Positions 20,721 through 42,821 of a stretch of 64,000 nt of DNA are shown here, piece after piece. The notes under the pieces are model-generated. The model made no database searches, was not told the origin of the DNA, and worked only from the letters and a program-made list of their open reading frames with translations. The translations under genes were made by a program, and so were the position numbers. The stretch is from an uncultured Thermodesulfobacteriota bacterium (GTDB taxonomy: Bacteria; Desulfobacterota; WTBG01), in assembly GCA_964580455.1 (NCBI GenBank), contig CAZOKO010000001.1:2992-66991 (forward strand). Reading direction: 5' to 3'. Each line of letters starts with the position of its first letter. The first letter of the stretch is position 1.

Positions 20721-20850
20721 CTATCTATTCCTGTCAATTACCCACTAAACAAGCTTCACTCATTGATCTGTGCAATCTACTGGTAGTGCCGACTCTGATG
20801 CATGTAAATAACTGCCCCTTGCAGCAGCATCCACCCGCATTAAAAAACCA

Positions 20851-21819: not shown

Positions 21820-22843
21820 AAGCGTTTACCATTGCAACAACTTTTTGGATTTCGACATCTGTTAAAAAAGGATGTATTGGCAGTGATATTACTTCATTCG
21901 AAAAAGCAATAGCATTCCTGTAGTGACCATCATCATAACTACCACTGCTAAAACACGGCTGTCTGTGTAAAGGAGTTGCATAGTGAACCATCGTTTGAAC
22001 ATTATTTTGGGAAAGAAAGGACCTAAGATCATTGCGATATTTTGATCTTATGACAAACTTATGATATACATGGCAACTGCCCTCTTGTTCATACGGTAAA
22101 ATGCAGGCATTACTGATGTTATTGCGGTAGTAGTCTGCAATTTCTCTTCGACGGGTCAGCCACTCTTCATTCAGCCCCAGTTTATAATTTAAAATTGCGG
22201 CTGTTAAACTTGGCATTTGTGAATTGTAGCCAAGGCACACAAAGTCGCCACCATCCCTGCCGTGATAACGCACCTGTGCAATCTTCTCAGCTAACTCCTG
22301 ATTGTCAGTTAACACCATCCCTCCACTTCCCGGAGCACCAATTACCTTTGTCGGATCGAAGCTCACACAACTTAACAGACCGAGTGATCCGGCTTTTCTC
22401 CCCCCATAACTTGCACCAAATGCCTGTGCAGCATCTTCAATAAGAATAAGATCATGGGAATTGGAAAAATACTCTATATCCTCAGGACTTCCCATTTTCC
22501 CAAAAAGGTGAACAAATATAATAGCTTTCGTCTTAGCTGAGACTAGCGAATCTGCGTTCTTCAAGTCCATATTGTATGATTCATCTATATCTACAAAAAT
22601 CGGCTTTGCACCAATCCTGAGAATACAAGACGCTGAGGCTATAAAGGAATAATCCGTAACAAGAACCTCATCTCCAGCCTCAACACCCGCACTCAGGAGA
22701 GAAAAATATAGTGCATCAGTACAGGAATTGACTGCAATAGCATACGTGCGATCACAGAAAATGGCGGTATTCCGTTCAAATTGTGATACTTCTTCCCCCT
22801 GTAAAACCTTGCCATGTGAAAGCACCGCATACACAATGCTCAT
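21806..22843 (-). CDS. DegT/DnrJ/EryC1/StrS-family PLP-dependent sugar aminotransferase
   Basis: Characteristic fold-I sugar aminotransferase sequence over 345 aa. It overlaps the downstream GT2 by 14 bp. Confidence 0.8.
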   Translation of the reverse strand: MSIVYAVLSHGKVLQGEEVSQFERNTAIFCDRTYAIAVNSCTDALYFSLLSAGVEAGDEVLVTDYSFIASASCILRIGAKPIFVDIDESYNMDLKNADSLVSAKTKAIIFVHLFGKMGSPEDIEYFSNSHDLILIEDAAQAFGASYGGRKAGSLGLLSCVSFDPTKVIGAPGSGGMVLTDNQELAEKIAQVRYHGRDGGDFVCLGYNSQMPSLTAAILNYKLGLNEEWLTRRREIADYYRNNISNACILPYEQEGSCHVYHKFVIRSKYRNDLRSFLSQNNVQTMVHYATPLHRQPCFSSGSYDDGHYRNAIAFSNEVISLPIHPFLTDVEIQKVVAMVNAFEKK

Positions 22844-22931: not shown

Positions 22932-23573
22932 CTATTTGTTCATGCGAATAAGCTTGGCGGGAACTCCAGCCACTACTTCGTGATCCTTAACATCCTCCGT
23001 AACAACCGCTCCCGCAGCAACAACACAATTGCTGCCGATGGTGATCTTCGGTATTACAGTAGCTCCGGTATAAATATAGGTTTTTTCTCCCACTATCACG
23101 GTACCACCTAAGGAAACACCTGGTGCTATATTACAATAATCCCCTATCTGATTGTCATGCTCAATAACTGATTGTGGATGGATAATTACATGATTGCCAA
23201 CAATAGCATTGGGCTGCAGTGTCGCATGAGGACTAATTATACACCCCCCACCTATCTTACAAAAGGGCGATATTACAGCCCTTGAACTAATACTGTTACC
23301 AAATGAAAATCCATAGTTTGATAACAATTTAACCGCCTTACTCTTTTTCTCCATATCTCCATGTGCTACAATTATCTTTATCTCACTGGTTGAAAATCGT
23401 TTAGTTACTTCTTCAATTCCACATAAAACTTCTACACCGTTTATGTTCGTACCAATCATCAGGCCGGTCTCCATATCAACCGCCCCGATAATATCGTAAT
23501 TCTTATCAATACAAACACTATCTATTACATAACGAGCCTGAGAACCACACCCAATGATCAGAAGTCTGTGCAT
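22932..23573 (-). CDS. PglD/NeuD/WbpD-type sugar N-acetyltransferase (left-handed β-helix)
   Basis: N-terminal Rossmann-like …LLIIGCGSQARYVID… and C-terminal hexapeptide repeats (…IGDYCNIAPGVSLGGTV…). Confidence 0.75.
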   Translation of the reverse strand: MHRLLIIGCGSQARYVIDSVCIDKNYDIIGAVDMETGLMIGTNINGVEVLCGIEEVTKRFSTSEIKIIVAHGDMEKKSKAVKLLSNYGFSFGNSISSRAVISPFCKIGGGCIISPHATLQPNAIVGNHVIIHPQSVIEHDNQIGDYCNIAPGVSLGGTVIVGEKTYIYTGATVIPKITIGSNCVVAAGAVVTEDVKDHEVVAGVPAKLIRMNK

Positions 23574-23581
23574 GTTTTCTC

Positions 23582-24562
23582 CTAACCTTTAGTTATTCGA
23601 AAAGCCTCTTCCAGGTATTCAGCATATTTTACTATCCCCTCCTCGAGATCGTGCGTAGGTAAATATCCCAAAAGAGTCTTAGCCTTTTCAATATCCAACG
23701 CTCCCCTATCAGGACGAAAGCTGTCACCTTCAACATAGTCAATCTCACTATTGGGATACACTGCCATGATAACCTCCAGCAGTTCTTTAAGGGTTCTGCC
23801 CCTTCCCCTGGTTATATTAAAAACCTGGTTGTGGGCTTTCTCCGAAAAGGTAACCAACTTTATCCCTTTGGCTACATCTTCGACAAAGGAAAAATCCAGA
23901 ACTGTCTGTTCTGCGTTCTTTGCTCTAATCTTCTCCCCTTTTACCGCATTGGTCAGAAAAATTCCAACCACTCTTCTATTGTTGTCAGTAGGACCATATA
24001 TTGCGGATGGCCTCACAATTGAATAAGGCATGTCATACCGCTGAGAATACACTTTCACCATATATTCTCCCGCCAGTTTCATTCCTCCATAAATCTCTTT
24101 AGGTTCTTTTGCACAATCTTCCGGTATCGGGACTTTTTTGAAATCTCCATACACCATACTTGAAGAGATGTACACGAATCTGGAAAGATAATTTCCATCA
24201 CGCAAAACCTCTAGAAGGTTTACCGTACCCCCCACGATAGTGCCAAACGCTTCCTCACTATACTCTATAGCCATATTCGCCAAAGGTAAAGCCGCGAAAT
24301 GAACCACAAGCTCCGGCTTTATACTTGAGAACTTTCTTCTCAACTCATCTTTGTTATTGGTATTGCACCTTACTACCTCAGCATTATTTATAAGCTTTTC
24401 AAACCTGTAATTAATATTATACGCATAGAGAGGTTTGATAGGAGGGAGTATATATTGATTAAACGCATCTAATACAAAAACATCATGGCCCTCTTCCGTA
24501 AGTATTTTTACCAGATGTGAACCAACAAAACCTGCTCCTCCGGTAACTACTACTCTGGACAT
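23582..24562 (-). CDS. NAD-dependent nucleotide-sugar epimerase/dehydratase (SDR)
   Basis: TGGAGFVGSHL Rossmann motif and YxxxK region. It is adjacent to the aminotransferase/acetyltransferase pair. Confidence 0.7.
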   Translation of the reverse strand: MSRVVVTGGAGFVGSHLVKILTEEGHDVFVLDAFNQYILPPIKPLYAYNINYRFEKLINNAEVVRCNTNNKDELRRKFSSIKPELVVHFAALPLANMAIEYSEEAFGTIVGGTVNLLEVLRDGNYLSRFVYISSSMVYGDFKKVPIPEDCAKEPKEIYGGMKLAGEYMVKVYSQRYDMPYSIVRPSAIYGPTDNNRRVVGIFLTNAVKGEKIRAKNAEQTVLDFSFVEDVAKGIKLVTFSEKAHNQVFNITRGRGRTLKELLEVIMAVYPNSEIDYVEGDSFRPDRGALDIEKAKTLLGYLPTHDLEEGIVKYAEYLEEAFRITKG

Positions 24563-24564: not shown

Positions 24565-25500
24565 TTACCCCCTTTGTAGAAGTTTATTGATAAATTTAAA
24601 CCACTTATCTATTCTTATATTTAACAATGATATAATTCTTAACGCACAACGCAAAGCACTTTTGCCCTCATTTAATTTTACATATGCTCTTATCATATCA
24701 TATAATATTTTCGACTCAGCCTCAGGATATGGCTTAAAATCTTCCCGGAATTTAGACAATCTCATCATGGCTGATTTTATATGATTTCTCAAACTCTCTT
24801 TTGAATTAACGCCTATTCTGTCTAAGTGTCCTATATGTACCTTGCACAGTATCTCGGAAACGTAATCCACCTCAAAATGCTTCGCAATTCTCCGGATAAA
24901 GTCTCCATCATTACCCCTGGGAAGTTCTTCGTCGAAGTATCCGACCTTGTTAATTACCTCTCGTTTTATGATAATGGTAGGACATCCACCAATTGCCTGT
25001 CTGTCTAGCATTTCAACAAAAACATTTCCGCGAAGCTTCGGAGCGCACACGTTAATAGACTTTCCATTATGGAAATATTCCATCCACGCATACACTAGCC
25101 CCGTTTCCGGTGAAGAGTTTTCAATAATTGGCATCTGCACTTCCAGTTTATTGACCGTCCATTCATCATCGTCATCTAAAAAAGCAATGTATTCCCCCTT
25201 GCTAGCCTTTATTCCAGTATTTCTTGCCGCTGATGCTCCTTTTGATGTGTCGTGCTTGAAAAAACGAATCCGAGGGTCATCATATGAGGCAATGACTTCA
25301 TCGGTGTTGTCGGTTGAGCCGTCTGAAACAATGATCAGTTCAAAATCTTCGTAGTTCTGCCTCAGGACACTGTCGACAGCACGGTGAAGCATTTCCTCCC
25401 GATTGTGAGTCGGGATTATAACACTGACATGAGGCAAAGTATTTGCATTTGAAGTTTTTGAATCATTCCTCATAGAATACGCCTGAATAGATTTACACAC
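24565..25500 (-). CDS. family 2 glycosyltransferase
   Basis: …VSVIIPTHNR…ELIIVSDGSTDNT…. Confidence 0.75.
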   Translation of the reverse strand: MCKSIQAYSMRNDSKTSNANTLPHVSVIIPTHNREEMLHRAVDSVLRQNYEDFELIIVSDGSTDNTDEVIASYDDPRIRFFKHDTSKGASAARNTGIKASKGEYIAFLDDDDEWTVNKLEVQMPIIENSSPETGLVYAWMEYFHNGKSINVCAPKLRGNVFVEMLDRQAIGGCPTIIIKREVINKVGYFDEELPRGNDGDFIRRIAKHFEVDYVSEILCKVHIGHLDRIGVNSKESLRNHIKSAMMRLSKFREDFKPYPEAESKILYDMIRAYVKLNEGKSALRCALRIISLLNIRIDKWFKFINKLLQRG

Positions 25501-26333
25501 TGCAGATAGTTGGCTAGGAATAATAAATGAATTTTCTTCAGAAATGTAAGGTCTTTTGCCTTAAGGCAATCAAGTTGTGGTAGCCAATTTCTCCACGAAA
25601 TGCGACCGTGAGCTAGCAAACCTAACTGCTCAAGTTTTTTCTGTCCGATAGCGATCCGTTTTGATTTCTTACGGATTTTACTGAATGTTGAACGGGCTGG
25701 ATGCTTTACGATGGCGTCTGGAATGTAAATGAGTTTTTCGTTTTTCTGGGTGAGGCGCCGTCCAAACTCATAGTCACCTCCGGATATCAAGTCGTTGCGA
25801 AATAGACCGTACGTCTCGAAAAGACGACGTGTAGAAAAAAAATTGGCGGTCGCACCAAATCCAGCGCTTTGCACAAAAGCTTTTTGATTCAATTTTCGTT
25901 TCGAATCGAAATATTCGTACACATTAGGCTGGTCACTTTCAAAAAAAAAGGAGATGTGTCCCGCGCCGCATGTCGCGTTCTCCCGTTTAAGTGCTCGCAA
26001 CCCAGCCTCTATCCATTGTGGTTCAGGAACACAGTCAGAATCTGTAAAAGCCAATATTTTACCTTTAGCTACTTGTATTCCCTTATTTCGTGCGGCATAT
26101 GAACTCTGAATCTCATCTTCGATTACCATGTGAATGAACTGACGATAATTGCGGCAGTACCACTTAACTGTGTTTTGCGTATCATCATTGGAACCGTTAT
26201 CAGCAACAATGACTTCAAAATTATTTTTAGAATACGTCTGATGAAGCAATGCCTCAAGACACACATTGATATTTTGCGCGTCATTGTAAACCGGAACGAT
26301 GATCGATGCAACAAGAGACATGAAATATAACAC
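25470..26333 (-). CDS. family 2 glycosyltransferase
   Basis: …SIIVPVYND…EVIVADNGSNDDT…. Confidence 0.75.
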   Translation of the reverse strand: MLYFMSLVASIIVPVYNDAQNINVCLEALLHQTYSKNNFEVIVADNGSNDDTQNTVKWYCRNYRQFIHMVIEDEIQSSYAARNKGIQVAKGKILAFTDSDCVPEPQWIEAGLRALKRENATCGAGHISFFFESDQPNVYEYFDSKRKLNQKAFVQSAGFGATANFFSTRRLFETYGLFRNDLISGGDYEFGRRLTQKNEKLIYIPDAIVKHPARSTFSKIRKKSKRIAIGQKKLEQLGLLAHGRISWRNWLPQLDCLKAKDLTFLKKIHLLFLANYLQCVNLFRRIL

Positions 26334-26343: not shown

Positions 26344-27513
26344 TTAAATATTCATCTCTATCTTCTCCAGGAAATCCAAGGGAAGTCTTGTAATTTCGTA
26401 GATACGAGCCGTGTGTGTCACAGGGTCTTCATTATTTCTGCTCATCATATAAGTATTTTTATCAAAACAATACTCAAATTGCTTAGAAATCCAGTACCGG
26501 GCATCTTCAACATTCTGTCCTTTTTCTCCATCCAGCAGCACATACTTTGAAAACGGCACCTCGAATCCCGGAGGATTATAGGGAAATCCGAATTTGTTGT
26601 CGTTTAAACCATTTATATATTCTTCGGACTCAAGGAAATCTATACATTTTTTGAAAGAATCTGACTGCCAGAACGGGTGCTCAGGAATCTGTTCTTTTAA
26701 TATGCCAAAGGCATAGGTGTTAAAAGCATGATAGCCTATAGATTTATACACCATCTTCTTGTGTTTTTTTTTCTCCTGTTGTTCACCTGTCAAATAGCTA
26801 TCTGAAAAAAACACCTTCCTAAAAATTGTATTCGCGTTTTTGATAAACCGCTTTATATTTGCTTCGAGATTGTATTCTTTTCCTTGTTGACCATCAATAA
26901 GATGATCAATAGGATGATAAATCAATCCGTTATCCATAACTGCGAGGTTGCGGCTCAGGCAATCCATAAAACGGTTGATTCTTTGAATGATGGTACTTCT
27001 TTGCTGTCCCTTATGTAGCGAAGCACAGGCTGCAAACCAGAGTTGATGATTAAAAGTTGCGTCAAATCTGAAGATCTCGCCATCAATTTCGAGCCTGTTC
27101 CACAGCCCAAAGTCGCTATTAAAAGGATGTTGGAAAAAGACCTGCTCGGCCAACTCTGAATATTTCTCGTGCCCCAGGCAAGCCGCCGCCTTCGCCAACG
27201 CTTCGAAAGTCCACGCCTGGCCGATCAGACCATTGCACTTGTCCTTTCCCGTCTTGTTTCGATGATGAAAAGAATAACCGTGGGGCCGAGCTTCTTCGGA
27301 GCAAATATACGCTACGAGATCTCGTACAGTGTCACAGTACTTGATTTGGCCCGTCCATTCAAAAACGTTTGCGAAGGTAATCAACCAGTGAGCCCGATTG
27401 CGGACGGGCGTTTCGGGGTCATGGTAGGGCCCGTTATGTCCCGCGCGAATGAACTCGTTCGGATTCTCCAGTGCCTTGTCGGCTATCTGTACAAGTATAT
27501 CAGCAATATACAT
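26344..27513 (-). CDS. putative polysaccharide lyase/epimerase-like (α/α)-toroid protein (NHxxW motif)
   Basis: 389-aa soluble protein with no confident family match by eye. It contains …ATFNHQLWFAAC…, which resembles the catalytic N-H-x-x-W signature of alginate-lyase/heparinase-II/III-type folds. This is a weak assignment. Confidence 0.3.
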   Translation of the reverse strand: MYIADILVQIADKALENPNEFIRAGHNGPYHDPETPVRNRAHWLITFANVFEWTGQIKYCDTVRDLVAYICSEEARPHGYSFHHRNKTGKDKCNGLIGQAWTFEALAKAAACLGHEKYSELAEQVFFQHPFNSDFGLWNRLEIDGEIFRFDATFNHQLWFAACASLHKGQQRSTIIQRINRFMDCLSRNLAVMDNGLIYHPIDHLIDGQQGKEYNLEANIKRFIKNANTIFRKVFFSDSYLTGEQQEKKKHKKMVYKSIGYHAFNTYAFGILKEQIPEHPFWQSDSFKKCIDFLESEEYINGLNDNKFGFPYNPPGFEVPFSKYVLLDGEKGQNVEDARYWISKQFEYCFDKNTYMMSRNNEDPVTHTARIYEITRLPLDFLEKIEMNI

Positions 27514-27637: not shown

Positions 27638-28486
27638 CTATATGCGACGACAGACATGAATCTTTTCATGCTTATGAATGCCATAACGGGTGATGGTCTC
27701 ACTAGGCAACTTCGCTGCAAAATCATCCAGCACTACCTCAAAACCCGCCTTACGAAGAAGATTCACAAAATCAGGTCCGTAGCGACGAACATGGTCTGGA
27801 TGCCCAAAGTGCGCGGCACGTGTTTCTGGTGTCGTAATGGTCTTATCTTCTATGATTTGTTCTGCCCAAATTGGAACCTGAATAATAGCTCTTCCTGTTG
27901 GTCTTAAAATACGGCAAAGCTCTTGTGCTGCTTTGAAATCGTCCTGGATATGCTCAAGGACATGATAGCAAAGAATAAAATCAAGCGAAGCGTCATCAAA
28001 TTTCAAATCAGTGATATCCATTAAGTGCGTAGGGTTTCGGTGTGGGGTAATGTCAATCGATACGTAGTCGATATCCGCATCATGGAAAAAGGCATTATAA
28101 ATAAACCTATTTGGTGCAATATCTAATACTCGTGCGCCTGGCTTTAAAATGTTTGGTTTATCTTTTAAATAAAACCATAATAAACGGTGCCGCTCACCAG
28201 CGCCGCAATTGGGACACAAGGCGTTGGCGACACAGATCCAATCCATGGCCAATAAACGTTTTCCATCGTCACTTTGCCAAAATGGTCGGTCCAGAGCCCC
28301 GGAGGGACGGAAACGATCAAACGACATCCCACAAAACGGGCACTCCACGTTATCCCCGGCGTATATTTTAATTCGGCGCCGGCGTTGATATTCTCGCCGA
28401 GCCTTTTGGGTAGAATTCAACACTGGTTTTAAAACAAATTTGGCCAAATTTTTGGGTAATCCCATATCCCGTGCTACTCCCCGCAA
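27638..28486 (-). CDS. class I SAM-dependent methyltransferase with N-terminal CxxC…CxxC zinc-ribbon
   Basis: CPFCG…CPNCG motif followed by the SAM motif I region (…GARVLDIAPN…) and a Methyltransf_11/23-like body. Confidence 0.6.
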   Translation of the reverse strand: MRGVARDMGLPKNLAKFVLKPVLNSTQKARREYQRRRRIKIYAGDNVECPFCGMSFDRFRPSGALDRPFWQSDDGKRLLAMDWICVANALCPNCGAGERHRLLWFYLKDKPNILKPGARVLDIAPNRFIYNAFFHDADIDYVSIDITPHRNPTHLMDITDLKFDDASLDFILCYHVLEHIQDDFKAAQELCRILRPTGRAIIQVPIWAEQIIEDKTITTPETRAAHFGHPDHVRRYGPDFVNLLRKAGFEVVLDDFAAKLPSETITRYGIHKHEKIHVCRRI

Positions 28487-30651
28487 TGAGTAATTTGTCG
28501 CTCAACTTCTAACGCGATATGTGCGGCACATAGTTGATGTTGCAAGCTGATAGGCCATTGGCTCTCTGTTTTCACAGCTCGAGCAAAAGCGGCGATTTCA
28601 GCGAAGTGCCCTTTGTCACCTGAATATTTCTGTCGTTTGTTTTGTGGGCCGAAAAATTCTAATTCCTCATAATCGTTCATGACAAGCACAGATTCGTCAA
28701 GATATCCACGCATATGTTCTTTAGGATAGGTTTTATGTCCCAATGTTGTGTAGGTCAAAGTTGCCAGGGAACCATCAGTAAATGATATCGTCGCAGTAAA
28801 GTTTTCGTTCGGGCTATGATCATTACCTGAAACACCAGCGTGGCTCACGGTAATGCTTCGTGGAACACTATCGATTAAATATAAAAATAAATCATAAATA
28901 TGACAGGCCTCGCCAAGATTGCGTCCACCGCCTTCTTCTGTACGAAGCCAATGGTCAGGGGAGAGTGCTCCGGAGTTTACCTCATAATTAATAATAACGG
29001 GAGACTGACGTTCTTGTATGATCGATTTGGCATCAACCATGAGTTGAGAAAATCGCCGGTTATACCCCGTCATAAGCATGGGCTTGTTTTTGGTGTTATC
29101 CTGATAGAAGGCCTTAATTTGGTCCAATTCATCCATCGTCAAAGCCAATGGTTTTTCCACAAATACGTTCTTTCCGGTCTGGAGGGCCTTCAGGGTCATT
29201 TTGGCGTGTAAATTGTGGCGCGTGCCGATAATGATAGCATCCAGTTCTGCGTCTTGCAGCAACTCGTCGTACGAGGTGGTGGCATAGTCAGCGCCGTACT
29301 GTTCGGCCACTTGCATGGCAGTGGCCCCGGTGCGGCTCATCACCGCGGCCAGGCGCACCTCACCCTCCAAACTTTTGAGCGCGGGCAGATGGACCCGTTT
29401 GGTAAATCGGCCAGCACCGGCCATGGCCACCCGAATGATTCCCCCGGTTGCTTTTGGTCGGATCTGAACCAGGTCTACGCGGGTTCGCCTTTTCTCGGTC
29501 AGAAGTTTATCGTCAGGATATTTGATAAAGATGGCACAGGGTCTATCGGTGCCATCTTTTAGGCGTTGGTAGGCTTCAGGCGCGACATCCAGAGGGAACT
29601 CTTCAGTCATCAGGGCCAAGTCCAGCTTTTCTTCGGCCAGCAAGCGCAGATATTCCTCCATGTTGCGCTTTTCAGTCCAGCGGACGTAGGCGTAGGGGTA
29701 ATCCAGTCCTTTCTCCTCATAGCGCTCGTCGTAGCGCCCCGGCCCGTAGGAGATTGAAGCCAAGAAATCTATCTCCTTACGCAAAAAAGGATTCTTTTGA
29801 ATGTTCATAGGAACTAAGCCGACCACAACCACCCGACCCTTCTGGCGCGTGATCTCCATGGCTGTCTGCACAATCTCGTCGCTTTGAGAGGCCGCCGTGA
29901 TCAGGCAGACATCAACTCCCATGTGTTTGGTAAAGCGATTGACCGGCCATTGAACTTTATCAGGGTCAGCATACGCTTCGTCAATGTCCAGCTCCTTGGC
30001 TCGCTCGACCTGTGTCGGGTCTATGTCGAAGCCGATCACTCGGGCGCCAGATAACTTTAACAGTTGTACGCTGATTAGACCCACCAACCCCAGGCCAATG
30101 ACGGCCACTGATTCACCCAGATGAATTTCGGCCCGGCGCACGCCCTGCATAGCAACAGCCCCCACCGCTACCGAGGCCGCGTTCTTCATGTCGGCCTGCG
30201 GAGGGATCATGGTGACCAGATTCTCGGGGACGACGACGAGTTCAGAGTGAGTGGCTTTGTTTGCTCCGGCGCAGGCCACCCGGTCGCCCGGCTGAAATAG
30301 GGTCACCCCCGACCCGACCGCTACCACCCGGCCCGAACAGGAATAGCCGATGGAGACCATTGGCCTAGTGGATGAGTCCTTTGGCCCTAAGTAGTCGAAC
30401 ACAGTAGATACAGTTTTCTTAACCCCGTGATTGCGCAGGTAGTTGATCAGTTTGTTGATCAAGGCCGGATTCTGGGCCATACGTGTAACCAGACCGGGTG
30501 GCTGTGATCCCATTGCTTCCAGCGTGGCCATCTCCGTACCAGTGCTAATCAAAGAATACGCCACCTCAACCAATATGTGTCCAGGTTGAAGCAGCGGCGA
30601 TGGCACTTCAATAACTTTCGCACCATTCACGGTAGAGAAAACTTGCTTCAT
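28474..30651 (-). CDS. fusion protein: N-terminal MDR (alcohol-dehydrogenase-like) domain + C-terminal Gfo/Idh/MocA oxidoreductase
   Basis: Residues 1–340 have an MDR Rossmann (…VAVIGLGLVGL…). Residues ~390–725 are a Gfo/Idh/MocA NAD-binding region (…RVAMAGAGRFT…) with its α/β C-terminal domain. Confidence 0.65.
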   Translation of the reverse strand: MKQVFSTVNGAKVIEVPSPLLQPGHILVEVAYSLISTGTEMATLEAMGSQPPGLVTRMAQNPALINKLINYLRNHGVKKTVSTVFDYLGPKDSSTRPMVSIGYSCSGRVVAVGSGVTLFQPGDRVACAGANKATHSELVVVPENLVTMIPPQADMKNAASVAVGAVAMQGVRRAEIHLGESVAVIGLGLVGLISVQLLKLSGARVIGFDIDPTQVERAKELDIDEAYADPDKVQWPVNRFTKHMGVDVCLITAASQSDEIVQTAMEITRQKGRVVVVGLVPMNIQKNPFLRKEIDFLASISYGPGRYDERYEEKGLDYPYAYVRWTEKRNMEEYLRLLAEEKLDLALMTEEFPLDVAPEAYQRLKDGTDRPCAIFIKYPDDKLLTEKRRTRVDLVQIRPKATGGIIRVAMAGAGRFTKRVHLPALKSLEGEVRLAAVMSRTGATAMQVAEQYGADYATTSYDELLQDAELDAIIIGTRHNLHAKMTLKALQTGKNVFVEKPLALTMDELDQIKAFYQDNTKNKPMLMTGYNRRFSQLMVDAKSIIQERQSPVIINYEVNSGALSPDHWLRTEEGGGRNLGEACHIYDLFLYLIDSVPRSITVSHAGVSGNDHSPNENFTATISFTDGSLATLTYTTLGHKTYPKEHMRGYLDESVLVMNDYEELEFFGPQNKRQKYSGDKGHFAEIAAFARAVKTESQWPISLQHQLCAAHIALEVERQITHCGE

Positions 30652-31673
30652 TAAGACTCCTCTTCAGAAAAAGGTCCAAAATTATCAATCGCATACTGAT
30701 AAATCTCCAGATCTGGTTTACATATTGCTCTAACCCTTTCCCCAACTTCAGGTGTAACCGATCTCCGATACGAATCTGATATAGGGTTTTTCTTTTTGTG
30801 GGGAACTTTCAGTTTAAATCCAAAACGATCTTCAAATTTTCTCTGGAAATCTTCTAAATGCTCTGTAAACCCTATGATCTCAAATTTGTGCAGATTTGCC
30901 TTTGCTCTATATATCGCTGGTTGAGAAGCATAGTCCTCTCCCTTTCTAACACCGCCCAGATATGCCACATACTGATGTCCAAGATGCTTTGCTCTTTCTG
31001 ATTGTAGAAAGGTCATTATATCTTCATCTGTTCTTCCATAATCACGATGTACAAACCTGATGTAAAGGTAAGTTGAAAACCATCTTTCCACAGGATCCCG
31101 CAAGCAGGTAATAAACTTATACTTGCTGCCAAACTCACTATACGCTACTTTACTGAACGGGATGTGACCACTAATGAACTTTATTTTCTTGCCCATGAGG
31201 TACAAAAGCAAAAGCTCGCGATATTTTGGCACGTAGTAAGTCTCAGCCTCATCTGCAAAGTTATCTAATTCCTGATAAAAGGATTTTGCAGCTCTAAATG
31301 AAGGTGCTGAAGCAATGGTATAATTGGAAAAAGGAAACCATCTTTTAATTGCATCATCAATCGAAGTTCCCCCACACTTATGAATGTGTAAGAAGAAAAG
31401 GTCGGGGAAGTCATTATAGTATAGGTTCAGAGCTCTTTTCATGGGACTGTGTAAAAAAAGAACTCTATCTAAATTCCGATAACATATGCCCACCAAACGG
31501 GCACCCCATTTTACCATAGGCTTGACAATCCAATTCTGAATTTCTGTCATTTGGACACCCTTTCCATGATGACATTTATCATGTACGTAGAAGATAGCTG
31601 ATTTAAAAGATGGTATTAAGACACGTCCAGTCTCTGGTTTGTCGAAAGAACGCGTGCTATATACTTCTGCCAT
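30651..31673 (-). CDS. putative carbohydrate sulfotransferase (Sulfotransfer_2/3-like)
   Basis: 5'-PSB-like motif FLHIHKCGGTSI (compare HIPKTGGT) and 3'-PB-like motif CLRDPVERWFSTYLY (compare RDPxxRxxSxY) with the right spacing. Length 340 aa. Confidence 0.55.
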   Translation of the reverse strand: MAEVYSTRSFDKPETGRVLIPSFKSAIFYVHDKCHHGKGVQMTEIQNWIVKPMVKWGARLVGICYRNLDRVLFLHSPMKRALNLYYNDFPDLFFLHIHKCGGTSIDDAIKRWFPFSNYTIASAPSFRAAKSFYQELDNFADEAETYYVPKYRELLLLYLMGKKIKFISGHIPFSKVAYSEFGSKYKFITCLRDPVERWFSTYLYIRFVHRDYGRTDEDIMTFLQSERAKHLGHQYVAYLGGVRKGEDYASQPAIYRAKANLHKFEIIGFTEHLEDFQRKFEDRFGFKLKVPHKKKNPISDSYRRSVTPEVGERVRAICKPDLEIYQYAIDNFGPFSEEES

Positions 31674-32675
31674 TCATGATACTTTGATATCGGTTAGGTT
31701 AGTAATGATTCTTTCTGCTAGGGCAATCTGCTCTTTAGAGGTTAGGTCACTCTGCCTGAAACTACGAATATGAAATCCGAAAGGAGCACCCTTCCATATA
31801 AATTCTTCCCAGCCATACATGGTCGCGTCTACATAGCCACGCTCACGAAATCCATTGCGTGTATAGTATTCTGGCCGCTTTGGAAGATAACTAAAGCGAT
31901 CAGGAAGCAATTTATTAAGGATCCTATTACTCGCTCGTTGAAAGACTTGTACAGAATCTTCAGAACTAGGTCTGTAAACTGGTTGGAGGCACTCAAAGCG
32001 AATCCTGGAAGACCAGTGATATCTACGGTAGATACGATATCCGGTATCTGGTTGCGTTCCGACTTGTATTCGGTGCTTCAGATCGTCAGCGAATCGGAAA
32101 CCCAAACGGACACTACAGCGCGTGAGTGCTAGAAGGAAGTATTGCAAGATTTGTGATTGCAGTCGGTGTTCCTCTTTGTCATTCTGTTCTCCGGGTCTGA
32201 AGTCCAATGTCCCTATGTTAATCCGCTCTAGATCGATAAAGAGGCAGTGTACACAAGGAAAGTAGCGGTATTTTCTGATCCATTGTGGATGCCAAGGAGC
32301 ACCAAAGAAGGCCAGGTCGTTCGCTTTCATATACCGAATGACATCATCAATCCATTTCTGCCGCACAATGTAGAAATCCGGATCAAGAAATACCAAGAAC
32401 CTAGTATCCACGAATTTGATAGCCTTGTTCAGAGCAGCGCCATGGTGGTAGCTAGCTGGCGCCCACTTGTTGGCGTCCTTCTCATAACCGTTTAGAACGT
32501 GGAAATGATCGGAACTGAGATTCAAAGCGTCCAGTGACCCAGGTGGCGTATTCTCAACGACCAACCACGCTATCTTGTGGGAATGATTTAAGAGCGTCGT
32601 TAACTCCCAGTTCAGCTCAAGATGCTTCTTGCTATGAAATGATACTGAACATATTGTCAGGCTAGATTCGTACAT
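31674..32675 (-). CDS. putative GT-A-like glycosyltransferase (unassigned family)
   Basis: …FLVFLDPDFYIV… DXD-like motif in an α/β context. No confident family assignment. Confidence 0.3.
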   Translation of the reverse strand: MYESSLTICSVSFHSKKHLELNWELTTLLNHSHKIAWLVVENTPPGSLDALNLSSDHFHVLNGYEKDANKWAPASYHHGAALNKAIKFVDTRFLVFLDPDFYIVRQKWIDDVIRYMKANDLAFFGAPWHPQWIRKYRYFPCVHCLFIDLERINIGTLDFRPGEQNDKEEHRLQSQILQYFLLALTRCSVRLGFRFADDLKHRIQVGTQPDTGYRIYRRYHWSSRIRFECLQPVYRPSSEDSVQVFQRASNRILNKLLPDRFSYLPKRPEYYTRNGFRERGYVDATMYGWEEFIWKGAPFGFHIRSFRQSDLTSKEQIALAERIITNLTDIKVS

Positions 32676-32728: not shown

Positions 32729-33820
32729 CTACTCACTACGAATGCCAACAAGATGCCGATAACTATAGATAGACCGAGATGATTGGTTGCCGCGTAACAG
32801 CTTACGAACAAAGCTCCTTACGAATCGCCTGACTGAGACCCTGCCATGATCAGGCCCAGTATCTATAACTGTATATGGAACGTCCAACACTTTTACTCTC
32901 GTCAAATCATAGTATCGAGATAGGACAGAGCTCACTGTAGTAAGCTGCGAATTATATCGAGACCTCTCCCGGTTTAAACTGTAGAGGTTGGGACACTCTA
33001 ACTGATAAACCTTTCGCACATAATGATCGACCAACTCGGTGGTCATCTCTTGGAACGAAACCATGTTGATAGTCAAGTCAAGCTGCTCCACCCGGATGTC
33101 ATCCAGGAAGTAATGCGGCAAAAAGATAAAGTCATAGGATTTATAATCTTTCAGAAGGGTTGCCATTGGTCCATCACCGTATGTAAGTACGGAAGCGGAT
33201 GGGAATAACGTTCTTAGATAGACAGCAGAGAAAAGTAATGTCTGAGGTAAATCTATGATGATGTAAGTAATGTTCGGACACAATGTCTTGAACTGATAAG
33301 CAAATCCCCCCCACCCAGCGCCAATCTCCATGACGACCTTCTTCCCCTTCCCTGAGTTGGCGCGAAATTGCGCAAGCAGCCCTGCTTTGCTCAAGGCGAT
33401 CAAAGACTCGTAGTATTTTAACGTGTCAACGTTGAACAGAGCACCATCAATTAGGTGGCCAAATCCCCCAAGTAGTGGAGACTCAGACACCAGCAAATTG
33501 CTGTCATCTTGTTGTCGCAGTACCTGCAACTTTCTGGCAAATGCTTCTCGCTGATGTGTATGATGGCCCCGATAGTCGAAGACGCGCACTCCGGTTAGGT
33601 GATAGCAATGATGCCTCAGCTTTTCGATTATTAGGGGAGAAGCATCAAGCATGTACTCAAAGCCTGCCAGTTCCTCTTCCCAATAATTGCTGAGATTGTC
33701 GGTGTGAGCAGCGACATGGTTTATCATCTTAAATACGACTTCACGTACTTCAAGGTAAATGCGATACTCTCTACTTCGTCTGGCATTCTCTACAGAATCC
33801 ACTAAAGCACTATATCTCAT
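32729..33820 (-). CDS. class I SAM-dependent methyltransferase with ~150-aa N-terminal extension
   Basis: Motif I VVMEIGAGWGGFAYQF and a downstream acidic motif. Confidence 0.55.
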   Translation of the reverse strand: MRYSALVDSVENARRSREYRIYLEVREVVFKMINHVAAHTDNLSNYWEEELAGFEYMLDASPLIIEKLRHHCYHLTGVRVFDYRGHHTHQREAFARKLQVLRQQDDSNLLVSESPLLGGFGHLIDGALFNVDTLKYYESLIALSKAGLLAQFRANSGKGKKVVMEIGAGWGGFAYQFKTLCPNITYIIIDLPQTLLFSAVYLRTLFPSASVLTYGDGPMATLLKDYKSYDFIFLPHYFLDDIRVEQLDLTINMVSFQEMTTELVDHYVRKVYQLECPNLYSLNRERSRYNSQLTTVSSVLSRYYDLTRVKVLDVPYTVIDTGPDHGRVSVRRFVRSFVRKLLRGNQSSRSIYSYRHLVGIRSE

Positions 33821-33846
33821 TAAGACCCTCCATCATCATTCTTGCG

Positions 33847-34569
33847 CTACTTCACACGACGCAGCCACCCGTATTGGTGAAACGAAAATAGATTTCGCCG
33901 CCATAGCTTGTCATCTCGAACAAAGTTGCTGTTGTTTCTTAAGAACTCGTTTACTGCTTCAAGTGGACCAGGTCCGAAATCAGGGACAACAGGGTGTCCG
34001 TTAATATTCGTGTCCTCCACAACAAGGTAACAACCCACATCAACAAATCGGCTATATATTTCAAGTTCTCTTAAGACGTGTTCATAACTGTGATCCGAGT
34101 CCAATGACACCAGCCCATTTTGTGTGGTGAGAAGGTCTTCTACAGACTCAACCGTTTTGGCATCAACCGAGTCTCCCTCTATTAGGTGGATTCTTGAATG
34201 GCTGAGACTTCTAGCTTCAGCGGTAGTTTCAATATCTATACCTATCACTATTGCGTCTGCATCAGCACCGATCAAGTCCAAGATGTGCGCAAAGTATAGG
34301 ATTGAACCTCCATACGCTACACCTGTCTGCAAGATAAAGGCTGGCCTCTCATGATGTATGAGTTCTTGATAGAGCAAGAGGTCAAATGGCAGCTGTCTTA
34401 TTGGGTATCCGAGATATTTGTTCTTCCTCCAGCCCCTGGTATTATAGTATAGGCGATGGAATCTATCTATGACTATTCTATCGATTAGTCGAAATATATT
34501 GGAACTCAGACGAGACAACCTCATGTCTGCCAACCGTGGTTTTGTTTTCATATTTAGAATATACCTCAC
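33847..34569 (-). CDS. CmcI-family (cephalosporin hydroxylase/rhamnosyl O-methyltransferase-like) methyltransferase
   Basis: …[26 protein letters not shown]… matches the CmcI (PF04989) core. Confidence 0.6.
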
Positions 34570-34668
34570 TCACTCCTATCCTAGAGCAATAGTATTCCCT
34601 GGCAAGAACGGGCGCACTATACTCCAGAGCAGTCAGTCTCCTCCTTGGTCAGGATTTGGTGGCTCGGC

Positions 34669-35307
34669 TCAGGTAATTGACATGGATTTCTTAACAAGTA
34701 TAGCATTTAACAATGTTGGAAATAGAGCACAGGAATACTTACTACTCACAAGACCAAACCTCCGCATAATGCGCATAATCACAGTTGGGGCAAATATTTC
34801 CTGACGAGCGAGGTTGGCAGTGAGAGGTAACCTTTCCCCTCTGATTTTTGTGTAATAAAAGGACCTATCCTCTACTAGCTCACATTCAGGGAATAGAACT
34901 GATAAGGAAGCTGGGGTAAATCTCCAATAATCATCGGGAAATGTATGAATTTCCCAGACAAAAGGAACACTTATGAATATCACTCCTCTCTCGGCAAGGA
35001 ATCTACTAATATTCTCTGCCATCTTAAGTGGATACTTGCAATGCTCTAGGACACTAAAACAAATTACAGTCTTAAACTTTTCAATCCCCATTTTGTTTTT
35101 TATCAATTCATAATCCGAAGTAAAATCACAAACAACATCAACGCCTTTACCCGGTTCCTGATCAACCCCTATGTAGGTTTCGGTCTTAAATAATTGTCTG
35201 AAGTCATTTGCATTTCCGTACTGTTTGCTTCCTACCTCCAAAATATGCCCTTCAACCATATGACGATTCTCAATTACGAAATCTAGTTGGTTTTGGTGTC
35301 CCGACAT
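34669..35307 (-). CDS. class I SAM-dependent methyltransferase
   Basis: Motif I ILEVGSKQYGN. Start placed at the ATG forming a TAATG overlap with the wzt stop (35305–35309). The longer ORF-track start would overlap wzt by 73 bp. Confidence 0.6.
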   Translation of the reverse strand: MSGHQNQLDFVIENRHMVEGHILEVGSKQYGNANDFRQLFKTETYIGVDQEPGKGVDVVCDFTSDYELIKNKMGIEKFKTVICFSVLEHCKYPLKMAENISRFLAERGVIFISVPFVWEIHTFPDDYWRFTPASLSVLFPECELVEDRSFYYTKIRGERLPLTANLARQEIFAPTVIMRIMRRFGLVSSKYSCALFPTLLNAILVKKSMSIT

Positions 35308-36611
35308 TAGCTTAGCTCCTGTCTTTTGGTAATCCATTGTAAGAGCGGGCGAACCACTCCGGGCATCTCTCCCCCCCAATCGCCACGCGCGGAATTGCCA
35401 CTAGCATTATCCACTATCTGAAAGGCTATAACGTCTTGCTCACGTACATGCTTGACAGTCGGACTTATCGTGCTGATCCCAGCGAAAACAAACACGGTCC
35501 CTTCCGCCATGAGATTGGCGGGTATCCAGGCCATAGTGGTATAACATCCTGTGGGTCGAGGCTGTTGACGCCATTCAGGGTCTGTGTCTATGGCAGTGAA
35601 GATTACCATACCATACTGGTTGGTGAGACGAAAAACCGGTGTGAGTACGACATCAGGCTTGAGCACATTGTACCGCATTACGAGTGCAAAAGGTCGGCAA
35701 ATATCAATCGCTTCACTTACCTTTCCATCTTCGTTCTGGACGTACACAGCTCGTAATCGAACTATATCGTCACCCGGTGCATTGTTGAGTTTACGCCATT
35801 CTCGCTTTGCCACAGTACCTAGATCAGACTGAAGATAGGTAGCTACAACCTGTTGAGAAGGCCCATCTTGTATAACCTGACCCTCATTCAACAATATCGT
35901 GCGTTGACACAGTCGAGTAATAGACGGCATACTGTGAGAGACAAACAACACCGTCCGTCCGCCTACTCCGATCTCACCCATCTTCTCCAAGCATTTCTTC
36001 TGAAAGCGGATATCCCCCACTGCCAGCACTTCATCCACTAGCAATATCTCCGGCTCCAAGTGGGCTGCCACAGCAAAGGCTAGGCGCACATACATACCGC
36101 TGGAATAGTACTTCACTGGTGTGTCTACGAACTTCTCGAGCTCAGCAAAGGCCACGATCTCGTCGAACTTGCGGTCGATCTCGTCCCGTTTCATCCCCAG
36201 GATGGCGCCGCTGAGATAGACATTCTCCCGCCCGGTCAGCTCGGGGTGGAAGCCAGTGCCCACCTCCAGCAAGCTGCCCACCCTCCCGTGGATCTCAGCA
36301 CGGCCTTCGGTCGGCTCGGTGATGCGGGAGAGGATCTTGAGCAGCGTGGTCTTGCCCATCCCGTTGCGTCCAATGATGCCTACAACTTCGCCATGTTTAA
36401 CCTCGAATGAGACGTCCTTAAGTGCCCAGATGAAGTTAGTTGATGGCTGATGGCTCGTGGCTGATGGCCGATGGTCGGTTCTTCTAGCCCGACGGCGGAA
36501 AGGTGAAGAGAAGGCATTCGCTATGCTCTCCCGAAGAGTCTTATAGCCTACAAACTGACCTACACGATAAAGCTTACCTAAGTTTTCTGCTTTGATGGCG
36601 ATGTTGCTCAT
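35307..36611 (-). CDS. wzt: ABC transporter ATP-binding protein Wzt/KpsT-type with C-terminal carbohydrate-binding extension
   Basis: TagH/Wzt-type N-terminus (MSNIAIKAENLGKLYRV…), Walker A GRNGMGKTT, signature YSSGM, Walker B LLVDEVLAVGD. A ~170-aa C-terminal non-ABC extension fits the Wzt_C β-sandwich described for O-antigen terminal-cap recognition. Confidence 0.75.
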   Translation of the reverse strand: MSNIAIKAENLGKLYRVGQFVGYKTLRESIANAFSSPFRRRARRTDHRPSATSHQPSTNFIWALKDVSFEVKHGEVVGIIGRNGMGKTTLLKILSRITEPTEGRAEIHGRVGSLLEVGTGFHPELTGRENVYLSGAILGMKRDEIDRKFDEIVAFAELEKFVDTPVKYYSSGMYVRLAFAVAAHLEPEILLVDEVLAVGDIRFQKKCLEKMGEIGVGGRTVLFVSHSMPSITRLCQRTILLNEGQVIQDGPSQQVVATYLQSDLGTVAKREWRKLNNAPGDDIVRLRAVYVQNEDGKVSEAIDICRPFALVMRYNVLKPDVVLTPVFRLTNQYGMVIFTAIDTDPEWRQQPRPTGCYTTMAWIPANLMAEGTVFVFAGISTISPTVKHVREQDVIAFQIVDNASGNSARGDWGGEMPGVVRPLLQWITKRQELS

Positions 36612-37003
36612 GGATTATCCTTGATAGGAGACCGATGACCGTGGACGGGAACACCTAAAGCTTTCCGAAAAGCTTGCAATTTAACAAAAATCTCGTGCCC
36701 AAATTCCCTTATTTCCATAAGTAAATCACTGGATAAATAGTCTCGTCGTTCTATGATATCCAAACATGCTATTGTCTCCAAATAGGATCTCAAAGCCAAT
36801 CCAAGAAAACGGTTCTGCTCTGCATTGGTTTGTCCAGTTGAACCCTCTGCAATATTCAGCACGACAGAAGTTGCTGCTCGCTCTAATTGGTTCCGTAGAT
36901 TGAATCGCTCTGAGACAGGTAGCTTGCTTGAACACCCATATATTTTGTCAACATAATCCAAAGCCAAACGGTAAACATCCAGACGCTGAAACTTGTATTT
37001 CAT
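36608..37003 (-). CDS. four-helix-bundle protein (23S rRNA intervening-sequence protein/Avd-like, TIGR02436-type)
   Basis: KYKFQRLDVYRLALDY…LPVSERFNLRNQLERAATSVVLNIAEG… is typical of the family. Start set at ATG 37003, which has a GGAGGA Shine-Dalgarno 6 nt upstream. The stop overlaps the wzt start by 4 bp. Confidence 0.7.
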   Translation of the reverse strand: MKYKFQRLDVYRLALDYVDKIYGCSSKLPVSERFNLRNQLERAATSVVLNIAEGSTGQTNAEQNRFLGLALRSYLETIACLDIIERRDYLSSDLLMEIREFGHEIFVKLQAFRKALGVPVHGHRSPIKDNP

Positions 37004-37041
37004 ATATCCTCCGTTTCCAGTCTCTTGTCTCCTGTCTGCTT

Positions 37042-37899
37042 TCATATCACATCAGCAAAGGTTCTTTCACTACGTCGGAAATAAAACGCCCCTGAAATCA
37101 ATACCACTATTACAATTATAACAGAGATGGCCATCAAAGAGCCAGGCGGCGCTTTACCTAAAAGAGCCCAGCGGAAACCCTCAATTACTCCAGCCATGGG
37201 ATTAAATCCATATATTATTTGAAATTTCTCTGGCAGGAGGCTCGATGAATAAACCACTGGCGATGCAAAAAGCCATAGTTGAATTACAAATGGTATTACA
37301 TAGCGCACATCGCGATATCTTACATTTATTGCCGAGAGCCATAGGCCCACTCCTAAAGCAGTCATCAACGTTAGAAGGATAAATGCTGGCAACCAGAGTA
37401 TTTGGATAGTGGGAGGATAACCATAATAAAACATCATACCGATCAAAATAGTAAAGGCGATAGCAAAGTCAACCAGAGGGGAGAGGATACCAGAAAGGGG
37501 CATAACCAGCCTGGGGAAATATACTTTCCGAACGAGATTAGCATCCTGAACAAGGATGTTGCTTGAACGTGTTATGCCTTCAGCAAATAAGGTCCAGGGA
37601 AGCAATGCAGCATAATTAAACAGTGGATATGGGACCCCCTCTGAAGGAACTTTCGCCAGGTTGCCGAAGAATAGAGTAAATACTACCATCATAAAAAAGG
37701 GCTGGATAATTGCCCAAGCAGCACCCAGGAGTGTTTGCTTATAGCGTACTTTAATCTCCCGCCAGGTGAGAAAATACATCAGTTCGCGATAGATCCATAA
37801 ATCCCTTAAGTTTATTGGTATCCAACCCCTTGTGGGACGAATAACCACCATAGGCAATGAATTTATATTTGATTCACGCTTAAAGATATTCGCTTTCAT
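37042..37899 (-). CDS. wzm: ABC-2 type polysaccharide export permease Wzm/KpsM-like
   Basis: 285 aa with six predicted TM segments and ABC-2 family features. It lies immediately upstream of wzt. Confidence 0.75.
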   Translation of the reverse strand: MKANIFKRESNINSLPMVVIRPTRGWIPINLRDLWIYRELMYFLTWREIKVRYKQTLLGAAWAIIQPFFMMVVFTLFFGNLAKVPSEGVPYPLFNYAALLPWTLFAEGITRSSNILVQDANLVRKVYFPRLVMPLSGILSPLVDFAIAFTILIGMMFYYGYPPTIQILWLPAFILLTLMTALGVGLWLSAINVRYRDVRYVIPFVIQLWLFASPVVYSSSLLPEKFQIIYGFNPMAGVIEGFRWALLGKAPPGSLMAISVIIVIVVLISGAFYFRRSERTFADVI

Positions 37900-37966: not shown

Positions 37967-38908
<942 letters not shown>

Positions 38909-40262: not shown

Positions 40263-40600
40263 AGCTCACGAAGGTTTACAAAGTGTTGAAATGTTACTTA
40301 GCCACAGATTTCACAGATTTTCACAAGAAGGTATTTACAAAAACGCAAACTCACCTATGGCTTCAGCAACTGAAAAAGTTCTGTTTTTCAAATAGCTAAT
40401 TCTTTATATCTAAAATCTTAATAATCTGCGTTTATCTGCGTCCGAGAAATAAATTTCTCATAGTATAAATCCAGTGTTCAATTATTGAACATTGTAAACT
40501 AATATCGGAATATGTCAAGATTTTCTTTAATATTTTGTAGTTATTCACCACAGGGAACACGGAGATGCACGAATCTGCAACCACGAAGTTTACAAAGTGT
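40263..40600. repeat. ~300-bp direct repeat, copy 1 (left flank of TA array)
   Basis: About 92% identical to 43303–43612. It contains the CACAGATT repeats, the 15-bp palindrome GTTCAATTATTGAAC and atctgcgtttatctgcgtcc. Confidence 0.85.
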
Positions 40601-41376: not shown

Positions 41377-41501
41377 TACATTTTCATCTCATTATTCAAT
41401 TGGATATTTAAAGCTTTTATTACTTCTGGAAATAATACCTAATATGATAACCACGAAACACACGAAGAGTAGCCACAGATTACACAGATTTTCACAGAAT
41501 T

Positions 41502-42818: not shown

Positions 42819-42821
42819 ACA

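Follow-up and report, generated by a model that had tools for sequence, protein, structure and literature searches.

A predicted carbohydrate sulfotransferase in a Wzm/Wzt-type glycan locus of an uncultured Thermodesulfobacteriota bacterium

Does an uncultured Thermodesulfobacteriota bacterium place sulfate on a polysaccharide that it exports through a Wzm/Wzt transporter and, if so, on which part of the polymer? The question is raised by an open reading frame (ORF) at positions 30651..31673, on the minus strand of a 64,000-nucleotide stretch of contig CAZOKO010000001.1 (the window, meaning the whole stretch analyzed). An earlier note, made from the sequence alone, had read this ORF as a carbohydrate-type sulfotransferase gene of a Wzm/Wzt glycan locus, with motifs for binding the 5'-phosphosulfate and the 3'-phosphate of 3'-phosphoadenosine 5'-phosphosulfate (PAPS). 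We assign its product with high confidence to the PAPS-type carbohydrate sulfotransferases of Pfam family PF03567, similar to the heparan sulfate 2-O- and 6-O-sulfotransferases (HS2ST and HS6ST) of animals. We consider it likely that the protein is a cytoplasmic PAPS-dependent carbohydrate O-sulfotransferase that modifies an O-antigen-type glycan exported by Wzm/Wzt.

Family, fold and conserved residues

The maximal ORF encodes 340 amino acids (aa) from an ATG start, and its conserved catalytic domain occupies approximately residues 88-335. Comparison with Pfam hidden Markov models (HMMs), a check that the earlier note had proposed, returned PF03567 (Sulfotransfer_2) at 23.8 bits against a gathering score of 22 (E 5.8e-5), over residues 86-328 and profile positions 5-252 of 252; Sulfotransfer_1 also matched, below threshold. 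Both PAPS-binding motifs were located in the ORF with the suitable spacing that had been claimed for them (93 residues from K99 to R192). The 5'-phosphosulfate-binding (5'-PSB) loop FLHIHKCGGTSI lies on the minus strand at 31359-31394 (residues 94-105, with K99 at 31377-31379) and the 3'-phosphate-binding (3'-PB) strand-turn-helix CLRDPVERWFSTYLY at 31062-31106 (residues 190-204, carrying PxxRxxS). On the same strand, the segment FISGHIPF at 31155..31178 contains H170 (31164-31166). The motifs agree with the hallmarks described for PF03567, a PSB lysine and PxxRxxS in the PB (PMC11625862).

A search of approximately 5.8 billion proteins found 78 homologues, the best non-identical one at 49% identity and most with a precomputed PF03567 assignment. 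In an alignment of 26 diverse family members, K99, G102, H170, R192, P194, V195, S200 and A257 are invariant and R197 is nearly so (at least 90% conserved). The invariant set includes the 5'-PSB lysine and the 3'-PB arginine and serine that the earlier note had singled out.

The profile of the family also finds the animal enzymes. HS6ST (PDB 5T03) was matched with an E value of 3.5e-17 and HS2ST (4NDZ and 3F5F) over its full length with an E value of 1.3e-11, the HGH and RDPIER motifs of the latter being aligned. The loop FLHIHKCGGTSI aligns to the HS6ST PSB, VFLHIQKTGGTT, and to the PKTASTS loop of HS2ST; LRDPVERWFS aligns to IRDPIERLVS in HS2ST and to LRDPVSRYLS in HS6ST, whose PB is ITMLRDPVSRYLSEW. 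In single-sequence and profile alignments alike, H170 pairs with the second histidine of 'fyHGHvsy' in 4NDZ/3F5F, which we take to be the catalytic base of HS2ST.

A structural model built on the alignment with AlphaFold2 (AF2) had a mean predicted local distance difference test score (pLDDT) of 82.6, with values above 90 over most of residues 90-335. Its best Foldseek matches in the PDB were HS2ST (E 5e-9, probability 1.0, TMt 0.55) and HS6ST (E 1e-5), with lower matches to tyrosylprotein (TPST), cytosolic (SULT) and plant (SOT) sulfotransferases. Nucleotide kinases and zeta toxins appeared only at E values of ~1e-3, as would be expected of proteins that share a P-loop-like fold. This wider-family evidence removes the doubt attached to a marginal single-sequence Pfam score.

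The predicted sulfotransferase and the animal enzymes have the same fold and the common patterns ..H.(P/Q/H)K.GGT(S/T) in the 5'-PSB and LRDP..R..S in the 3'-PB, and by analogy the chemistry expected is also the same, PAPS-dependent O-sulfation of a polysaccharide hydroxyl. The two differ in that identity is only 15-20% and only the second histidine of HGH is kept (as SGH). Unlike HS2ST and HS6ST, the bacterial protein has neither a type II membrane anchor nor a Golgi lumen topology and would be expected to act in the cytoplasm on a lipid-linked glycan, and its acceptor would not be a glycosaminoglycan.

The glycan locus

Judging from its gene content, the locus around the sulfotransferase gene is ATP-binding cassette (ABC)-transporter-dependent and of the Wzm/Wzt type, so the family evidence above and the Pfam matches of the exporter genes together bear out the reading of a carbohydrate-type sulfotransferase in a Wzm/Wzt locus. 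All genes of the locus given here and below are on the minus strand. The exporter is encoded by wzm at 37042-37899 (ABC-2 permease; PF01061, 79.7 bits) and wzt at 35307-36611 (ABC ATPase of 434 aa; ABC_tran, 82 bits), for which the NCBIfam scores, 60 bits with NF050109 and 181 bits with the galactan Wzt/RfbE model NF050108, are below the equivalog cut-offs. Wzt has a C-terminal extension of ~170 aa that matches Wzt_C weakly (19.9 bits against a cut-off of 30.4) and fits a carbohydrate-binding domain (CBD) in length.

Upstream of the exporter genes, gmd at 39028-40158 encodes a GDP-mannose 4,6-dehydratase (TIGR01472, 547.6 bits, above cut-off) and 37967-38905 a GDP-L-fucose-synthase-like (fcl-like) reductase/epimerase (NF047922, 295 bits, with the cut-off of 500 not reached). 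These two enzymes probably supply a GDP-6-deoxyhexose, GDP-L-fucose being the probable product. Directly after wzt, three methyltransferase genes occupy 32729-35379 (Methyltransf_23; RMNT_CmcI, rhamnosyl-O-methyltransferase-like; and NanM-like sugar O-methyltransferase) and are candidates for O-methylation of the glycan or for chain capping; a WbdD-like kinase or coiled-coil protein was not identified. The polymer is predicted from the genes present to contain 6-deoxyhexose and an acetamido sugar and to be O-methylated.

The sulfotransferase gene sits in this same-strand array with short gaps, and its membership in an operon, which had been claimed, is supported by the tight packing and by the number of terminator-like sites between 26000 and 41000 (13, against 12.1 expected from shuffled sequence, thus no excess). 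One minus-strand terminator-like site lies inside the ORF upstream of the sulfotransferase gene, at 31796-31778.

ArgG of the window shares 84-85% identity with its nearest named matches, from Deltaproteobacteria bacterium DG_8 and Thermodesulfobacteriota, and therefore the host is taken to be a diderm, for which the O-antigen of lipopolysaccharide (LPS) is the simplest product. Genes for an initiating phosphoglycosyltransferase and for WaaL are often encoded away from an O-antigen locus. No initiating transferase of the WecA/WbaP type, WaaL ligase or capsule-type Kps gene was found among the scanned ORFs of the window, which makes an O-antigen a likely rather than a certain product, with another glycan exported by Wzm/Wzt as the alternative.

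A conserved pairing with a glycosyltransferase

What is new here is a conserved module made up of the sulfotransferase and one specific glycosyltransferase family 2 (GT2) protein, and this module offers the best handle on acceptor specificity. Two GT2 genes of the window (PF00535) lie at 24565-26333, one of which, at 25470..26333, is EpsD/HpsE-like. A specific same-strand orthologue of the latter is present in 12 of the 18 loci whose sulfotransferase shares at least 35% identity with that of the window, with 112-188 bits and 29-44% identity, approximately twice the score of any other window GT2 at the same place. Half of the 12 orthologues lie 33-169 nucleotides (nt) downstream of the sulfotransferase gene. 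The module, counting the window together with these loci (L003, L005, L007-L014, L023 and L084), spans Cyanobacteria, Nitrospirota and Thermodesulfobacteriota.

Because its orthologues adjoin the sulfotransferase gene in most of the closest loci, the GT2 encoded at 25470-26333 is the likely functional partner of the sulfotransferase. In the window the two genes share an operon and are 4.3 kb apart, with an oxidoreductase fusion, a methyltransferase and a 389-aa ORF between them. The two enzymes would act on the same or adjacent residues, the intervening genes having been inserted later. Neither immediate neighbor of the sulfotransferase gene, the GT-A-like ORF upstream or the oxidoreductase fusion downstream, qualifies as a partner, as neither had a match in any homologue locus. 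The pair of sulfotransferase and GT2 is tractable for heterologous reconstitution, through which the acceptor specificity of a large bacterial subfamily could be addressed.

Distribution of the family

How unusual is a sulfotransferase of this kind in such a locus? Searched against 1.84 billion cluster representatives (50%-identity clusters), the family profile returned 858 at E<=1e-30 and 11,962 at E<=1e-10. Named genomes with the family include those of Cyanobacteria, Nitrospirota, delta- and alphaproteobacteria, Bacteroidota and one metagenome-assembled genome (MAG) of Thermoplasmatota, and the Prokaryotic Genome Annotation Pipeline (PGAP) routinely labels plasmid-borne members 'sulfotransferase family 2 domain-containing protein'. 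Genes of this sort in polysaccharide clusters of the ABC type are already on record; Cobetia, for instance, makes its sulfated capsules through a KpsMT ABC pathway, and its cluster includes both sulfotransferase and PAPS genes (PMC11766843). The abundance of the family, its routine naming and these precedents make the earlier description of bacterial glycan sulfation as uncommon an overstatement.

All six homologues inspected for gene content are set in a polysaccharide locus, often with further sulfotransferases. Some occur in Wzx-type loci with extra Sulfotransfer_1/3 genes, and those on Leisingera and Paracoccus plasmids are paired in Wzy/tyrosine-kinase loci for exopolysaccharide (EPS). 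The other ABC ATPases near homologues are mostly fused exporters of ~620 aa. In the five loci with the closest cyanobacterial homologues (L007, L010, L011, L013 and L023) the sulfotransferase gene lies 2-4 kb downstream of an exporter of ~610-620 aa in which a transmembrane domain (TMD) is fused to a nucleotide-binding domain (NBD), an 'ABC-type' context unlike Wzm/Wzt.

A Wzm/Wzt setting was found by tblastn and iterative HMM search in 1 of the 82 other loci, in a search that was seeded by the single Wzm of the window and may miss divergent ABC-2 permeases. This locus (L015; Bacteroidota MAG JBCDFF010000001.1, 1-11511) encodes Wzm and a Wzt in which Wzt_C is clearly recognized (55.9 bits); directly after wzt come two Sulfotransfer_3 genes and one Sulfotransfer_2 gene, and then a GT2 and a GT4 gene. 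Three tandem copies of the family studied here follow at 9135-9848, 10001-10702 and 10798-11511, which brings the sulfotransferases to at least six and suggests a very heavily sulfated, ABC-exported glycan. The NBD of the window Wzt is 52% identical to that of L015 by BLASTP, and similarity stops at approximately residue 314. A sulfated terminal epitope common to the two loci was considered and found no support, as their Wzt C-terminal domains are not alignable beyond that residue. The family is thus abundant and already annotated, and of the notability claimed for the Wzm/Wzt setting one part stands, in that the setting is unusual for the subfamily; it is not new in kind.

The closest known relatives are the bacterial 'sulfotransferase family 2' genes for EPS and capsular polysaccharide (CPS), from cyanobacterial sulfated-EPS loci (PMC8205485), the Roseobacter group and Priestia plasmids. 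These are direct homologues (25-49% identity) of the same length and with the same motifs, in loci rich in glycosyltransferases and often with an EpsD/HpsE-like GT2 next door. They differ from the window in that they are mostly of the Wzx/Wzy type or beside fused ABC exporters, whereas the window and L015 are of the Wzm/Wzt type, and in that their loci contain multiple sulfotransferases, whereas the window locus has one sulfotransferase and four methyltransferases.

Proposed function and alternatives

Family, fold, conservation of the motifs and catalytic residues, operon context and co-conservation with the GT2 are established here. The PAPS donor, the acceptor, the sulfated position and whether every repeat would carry sulfate are matters of inference from the family and from the context. 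By analogy with the family, K99 of the 5'-PSB loop would contact the 5'-phosphosulfate of PAPS, R192 and S200 of the 3'-PB strand-turn-helix would hold its 3'-phosphate, and H170 would deprotonate the hydroxyl of a sugar, which would then attack the sulfuryl group in line. The context suggests as acceptor the undecaprenyl-linked glycan of this operon at the cytoplasmic face of the inner membrane, which would be rich in 6-deoxyhexose made by Gmd and the Fcl-like enzyme and O-methylated. In Wzm/Wzt pathways the whole glycan is built on the cytoplasmic side of the membrane, within reach of PAPS. The sulfated residue would most likely be at or beside the one added by the GT2 encoded at 25470-26333, and Wzm/Wzt would then export the sulfated polymer, which would form a surface polysaccharide of the O-antigen type on this diderm member of the Thermodesulfobacteriota.

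The glycan of the locus is thus probably sulfated, and we favor a decoration of the backbone or of a side branch over a terminal sulfate for three reasons: the three methyltransferases, and not the sulfotransferase, hold the typical terminator position after wzt; the sulfotransferase travels with the GT2 across many Wzx/Wzy-type loci; and the Wzt C-terminal domains of the window and L015 are unrelated.

Several observations weigh against sulfation of this glycan by this protein. The PF03567 score of the single sequence is barely over threshold and marginal alone, and the protein matches no NCBIfam model. Neither the 64 kb window nor ~4.5 kb of sequence recovered beyond it contains cysC, cysDN or cysQ, the genes of PAPS synthesis and of PAP recycling. 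The locus is mosaic in composition, with a guanine-plus-cytosine (GC) content of 52.1% in wzt, 51.6% in the oxidoreductase fusion gene and 38.8% in the sulfotransferase gene, compared to 40.4% for the window, and a Wzm/Wzt setting is atypical for the family. The literature searched shows no characterized member of this bacterial subfamily, and to our knowledge none has been assayed. Finally, locus context alone is no guarantee of a sulfated product, as in the wb(salmo) O-antigen cluster of Aeromonas salmonicida ORF19, a 'hypothetical protein with sulfotransferase domain', directly follows wzt, and the known structure of the O-antigen contains no sulfate (PMC4483657). By its description, ORF19 resembles the gene of the window in that it has a sulfotransferase domain and belongs to an O-antigen locus of the Wzm/Wzt (ABC-2) type; it differs in its length of 216 aa and its place directly after wzt, to which the gene of the window is not adjacent.

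Rhizobial systems offer functional parallels. NodH and NoeE carry out the type of reaction proposed here, in which PAPS serves to sulfate a sugar of a lipid-linked oligosaccharide. The substrate of NoeE is methyl-fucose, a parallel to the combination of fucose and O-methyltransferases in the window locus. Rhizobial capsular polysaccharide (KPS) is exported by an ABC-transporter-dependent system of the KpsMT type and is not known to use Wzm/Wzt. KpsS, encoded on the chromosome of Mesorhizobium loti, sulfates a polysaccharide and has fucosyl activity, as summarized from Townsend & Keating 2008 in PMC11625862, and by that description this surface-polysaccharide fucosyl sulfotransferase is comparable to the window locus, with its GDP-6-deoxyhexose, probably GDP-L-fucose. 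NodH belongs to PF13469 and not to PF03567 (PMC11625862). A tblastn search of 72,556 plasmids with the sulfotransferase returned 23 matches at E<=1e-3, with no rhizobial plasmid among them, and in this plasmid set no close relation to plasmid-borne NoeE or NodH was detectable.

Could the protein be a genuine PAPS sulfotransferase with a different acceptor, such as a glycolipid, lipid A or core, a nucleotide sugar or a small molecule, and its gene only a resident of a mosaic locus? The uneven GC content would fit such an origin, some bacterial sulfotransferases, among them NodH, Stf0 and KpsS, act on glycolipids (PMC11625862), and the GT-A-like ORF and the oxidoreductase fusion are not conserved partners of the family. 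We nevertheless regard this as rather unlikely, since within its operon the gene has glycan-building genes on both sides and overlaps the following one by 1 nt, since a polysaccharide locus is the setting in all six homologue contexts inspected, and since the operon also contains the conserved GT2 partner.

Chain ends of glycans exported by this route can carry caps; those known are methyl or phosphomethyl (WbdD) and Kdo (3-deoxy-D-manno-oct-2-ulosonic acid), in Escherichia coli O8/O9a and Klebsiella O12. The sulfotransferase might make such a cap at the non-reducing end, with sulfate, alone or on a methylated terminal sugar, stopping extension and being read by the CBD of Wzt. The C-terminal extension of Wzt, with its weak Wzt_C match, would imply a capped glycan, and in L015 three sulfotransferases follow wzt in the slot that the three methyltransferases occupy in the window. 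In A. salmonicida, a substoichiometric terminal group would fit a sulfotransferase-domain ORF after wzt and a repeat unit without sulfate (PMC4483657). In the window, however, it is the methyltransferases that are beside wzt, and methylation is an established cap chemistry; the unalignable Wzt C-terminal domains give no indication of a shared terminal epitope; most family members are in Wzx/Wzy-type loci, which use no such cap; and the conserved pairing with a GT2 suits the decoration of a specific backbone residue. A sulfate cap made by this enzyme is therefore quite improbable, and more doubtful still is the wider claim that sulfate serves as all or part of a terminating cap recognized by the Wzt C-terminal domain, which would be a terminator chemistry not yet described. 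If true, it could explain orphan sulfotransferase genes beside wzt, as in A. salmonicida.

That the protein is a degenerate enzyme, or a P-loop kinase-like protein with a different activity, is highly improbable: the marginal single-sequence Pfam score, the weaker fold matches to zeta toxins and nucleotide kinases and one low-coverage strain variant with a premature stop would fit such a reading, but the PAPS-binding and catalytic positions are all invariant across a large family, the profile matches to HS2ST and HS6ST are strong, and the kinase-like matches are far weaker than the sulfotransferase ones and go with the P-loop-like fold.

If the glycan of this operon is indeed sulfated, an uncultured anaerobic Thermodesulfobacteriota bacterium puts sulfate esters on an O-antigen-type, 6-deoxyhexose-rich, O-methylated glycan. 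This would add to the evidence for sulfated surface polysaccharides beyond cyanobacteria, rhizobia and marine Gammaproteobacteria and would indicate that sulfation in the cytoplasm can go together with export through Wzm/Wzt. The finding is sound and unsurprising and leaves the current understanding unchallenged.

Translation start of the sulfotransferase gene

Does the sulfotransferase gene abut both of its neighbors, as the earlier note had it? The downstream junction does: base 30651 is common to the TAA of the sulfotransferase gene and the ATG of the oxidoreductase fusion (TAATG), a 1-nt overlap that is untouched by the choice of start codon. At the upstream junction, the ATG of the maximal ORF (31671-31673) follows the TGA of the 333-aa ORF (31674-31676) with zero gap, but translation probably starts at Met42 (ATG 31548-31550) or Met78 (ATG 31440-31442) rather than at Met1, and the first 41-77 codons are probably untranslated, those of residues 1-41 corresponding to 31551..31673.

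This conclusion rests on the lengths of the homologues, on the Shine-Dalgarno (SD) sequences and on the model. Family members are 250-300 aa long, no homologue in the alignment has a counterpart of residues 1-65, and Met78 coincides with the start of several homologues. Among the candidate starts, only Met42 has an SD-like sequence upstream (GGAAAGGG) and Met1 is without any; most neighboring operon genes have a clear one, such as GGAGG, GAGGAG or AAGGGGG. Residues 1-40 have pLDDT values below 50 in the AF2 model and are thus modeled as disordered. Public gene calls of the identical protein give 340 aa (one Logan call), 299 aa (Met42) and 263 aa (Met78). The available contigs, all at least 99.6% identical, have zero substitutions in 31551-31673, and their comparison is uninformative on the start codon.

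With a start downstream of Met1, the zero-gap upstream junction is probably not a real translational junction. The abutment is true of the maximal ORF and, as regards the gene, probably an artefact of taking the longest ORF; a spacer of 123 or 231 nt is more likely. Membership of the operon holds despite this correction.

One of the contigs compared, ENA SUTE22-1_SAMN10231892 scaffold_48649 (L092), corresponds to window positions 30220-32108 and is a strain or assembly variant with 99.6% identity. Four clustered substitutions at window positions 30718-30738 introduce an early stop codon, by which the sulfotransferase loses its last 26 residues, the conserved C-terminal helix among them. The scaffold is 1.9 kb long, and the substitutions may be noise of its assembly or may mark an allele inactivated in nature.

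Other genes of the window

The 333-aa ORF upstream of the sulfotransferase gene (31674-32675), which had been described as GT-A-like, is so only weakly, with a PF00535 match of 23.0 bits against a threshold of 23.3, over 48 residues. The downstream gene (28474-30651, 725 aa) is, as had been noted, a fusion of two oxidoreductase domains, a zinc-dependent alcohol dehydrogenase of the medium-chain dehydrogenase/reductase type (Zn-ADH, MDR) and a GFO/IDH/MocA domain. No other sulfotransferase of the family has a counterpart of this MDR/GFO fusion nearby, and a fusion of two oxidoreductases is unusual in a glycan locus. Its gene and wzt are ~11-12 GC points above the window mean and above their neighbors, yet both have overlapping start/stop junctions; their composition suggests recent acquisition from a donor of higher GC content.

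Further downstream are a fourth methyltransferase gene (27638-28486, Methyltransf_11), the 389-aa ORF (26344-27513), which has no Pfam or NCBIfam match, and, beyond the two GT2 genes already described, genes for an epimerase/dehydratase (23582-24562, PF01370), a NeuD/PglB-type acetyltransferase (22932-23573, TIGR03570), a DegT aminotransferase (21806-22843, PF01041) and two additional GT2 proteins (19809-21819, PF00535). A gene of the 23S rRNA intervening-sequence protein (IVP)/four-helix-bundle type (36608-37045; PF05635, TIGR02436) separates wzm from wzt and overlaps each of them by 4 nt, an unexpected location for a member of this family.

The region 40650-43256, close to gmd on its upstream side, contains three nucleotidyltransferase (MNT)/HEPN-type toxin-antitoxin pairs in tandem, and the two copies of a 255-nt direct repeat (94% identity) flank it at 40312-40566 and 43333-43587. 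A lone nucleotidyltransferase gene lies at the opposite end of the glycan locus, at 19219-19578. By the second glycan locus of the window, which extends over 44213-60293 on the minus strand, two sizeable ORFs at 43689-44210 and 44213-45862 have no Pfam match. This second locus has a low GC content of 34-38% and encodes two B12-binding radical SAM enzymes, a radical SAM/SPASM protein, GT2 and GT4 transferases, an FdtA-like cupin and three epimerase/dehydratase proteins.

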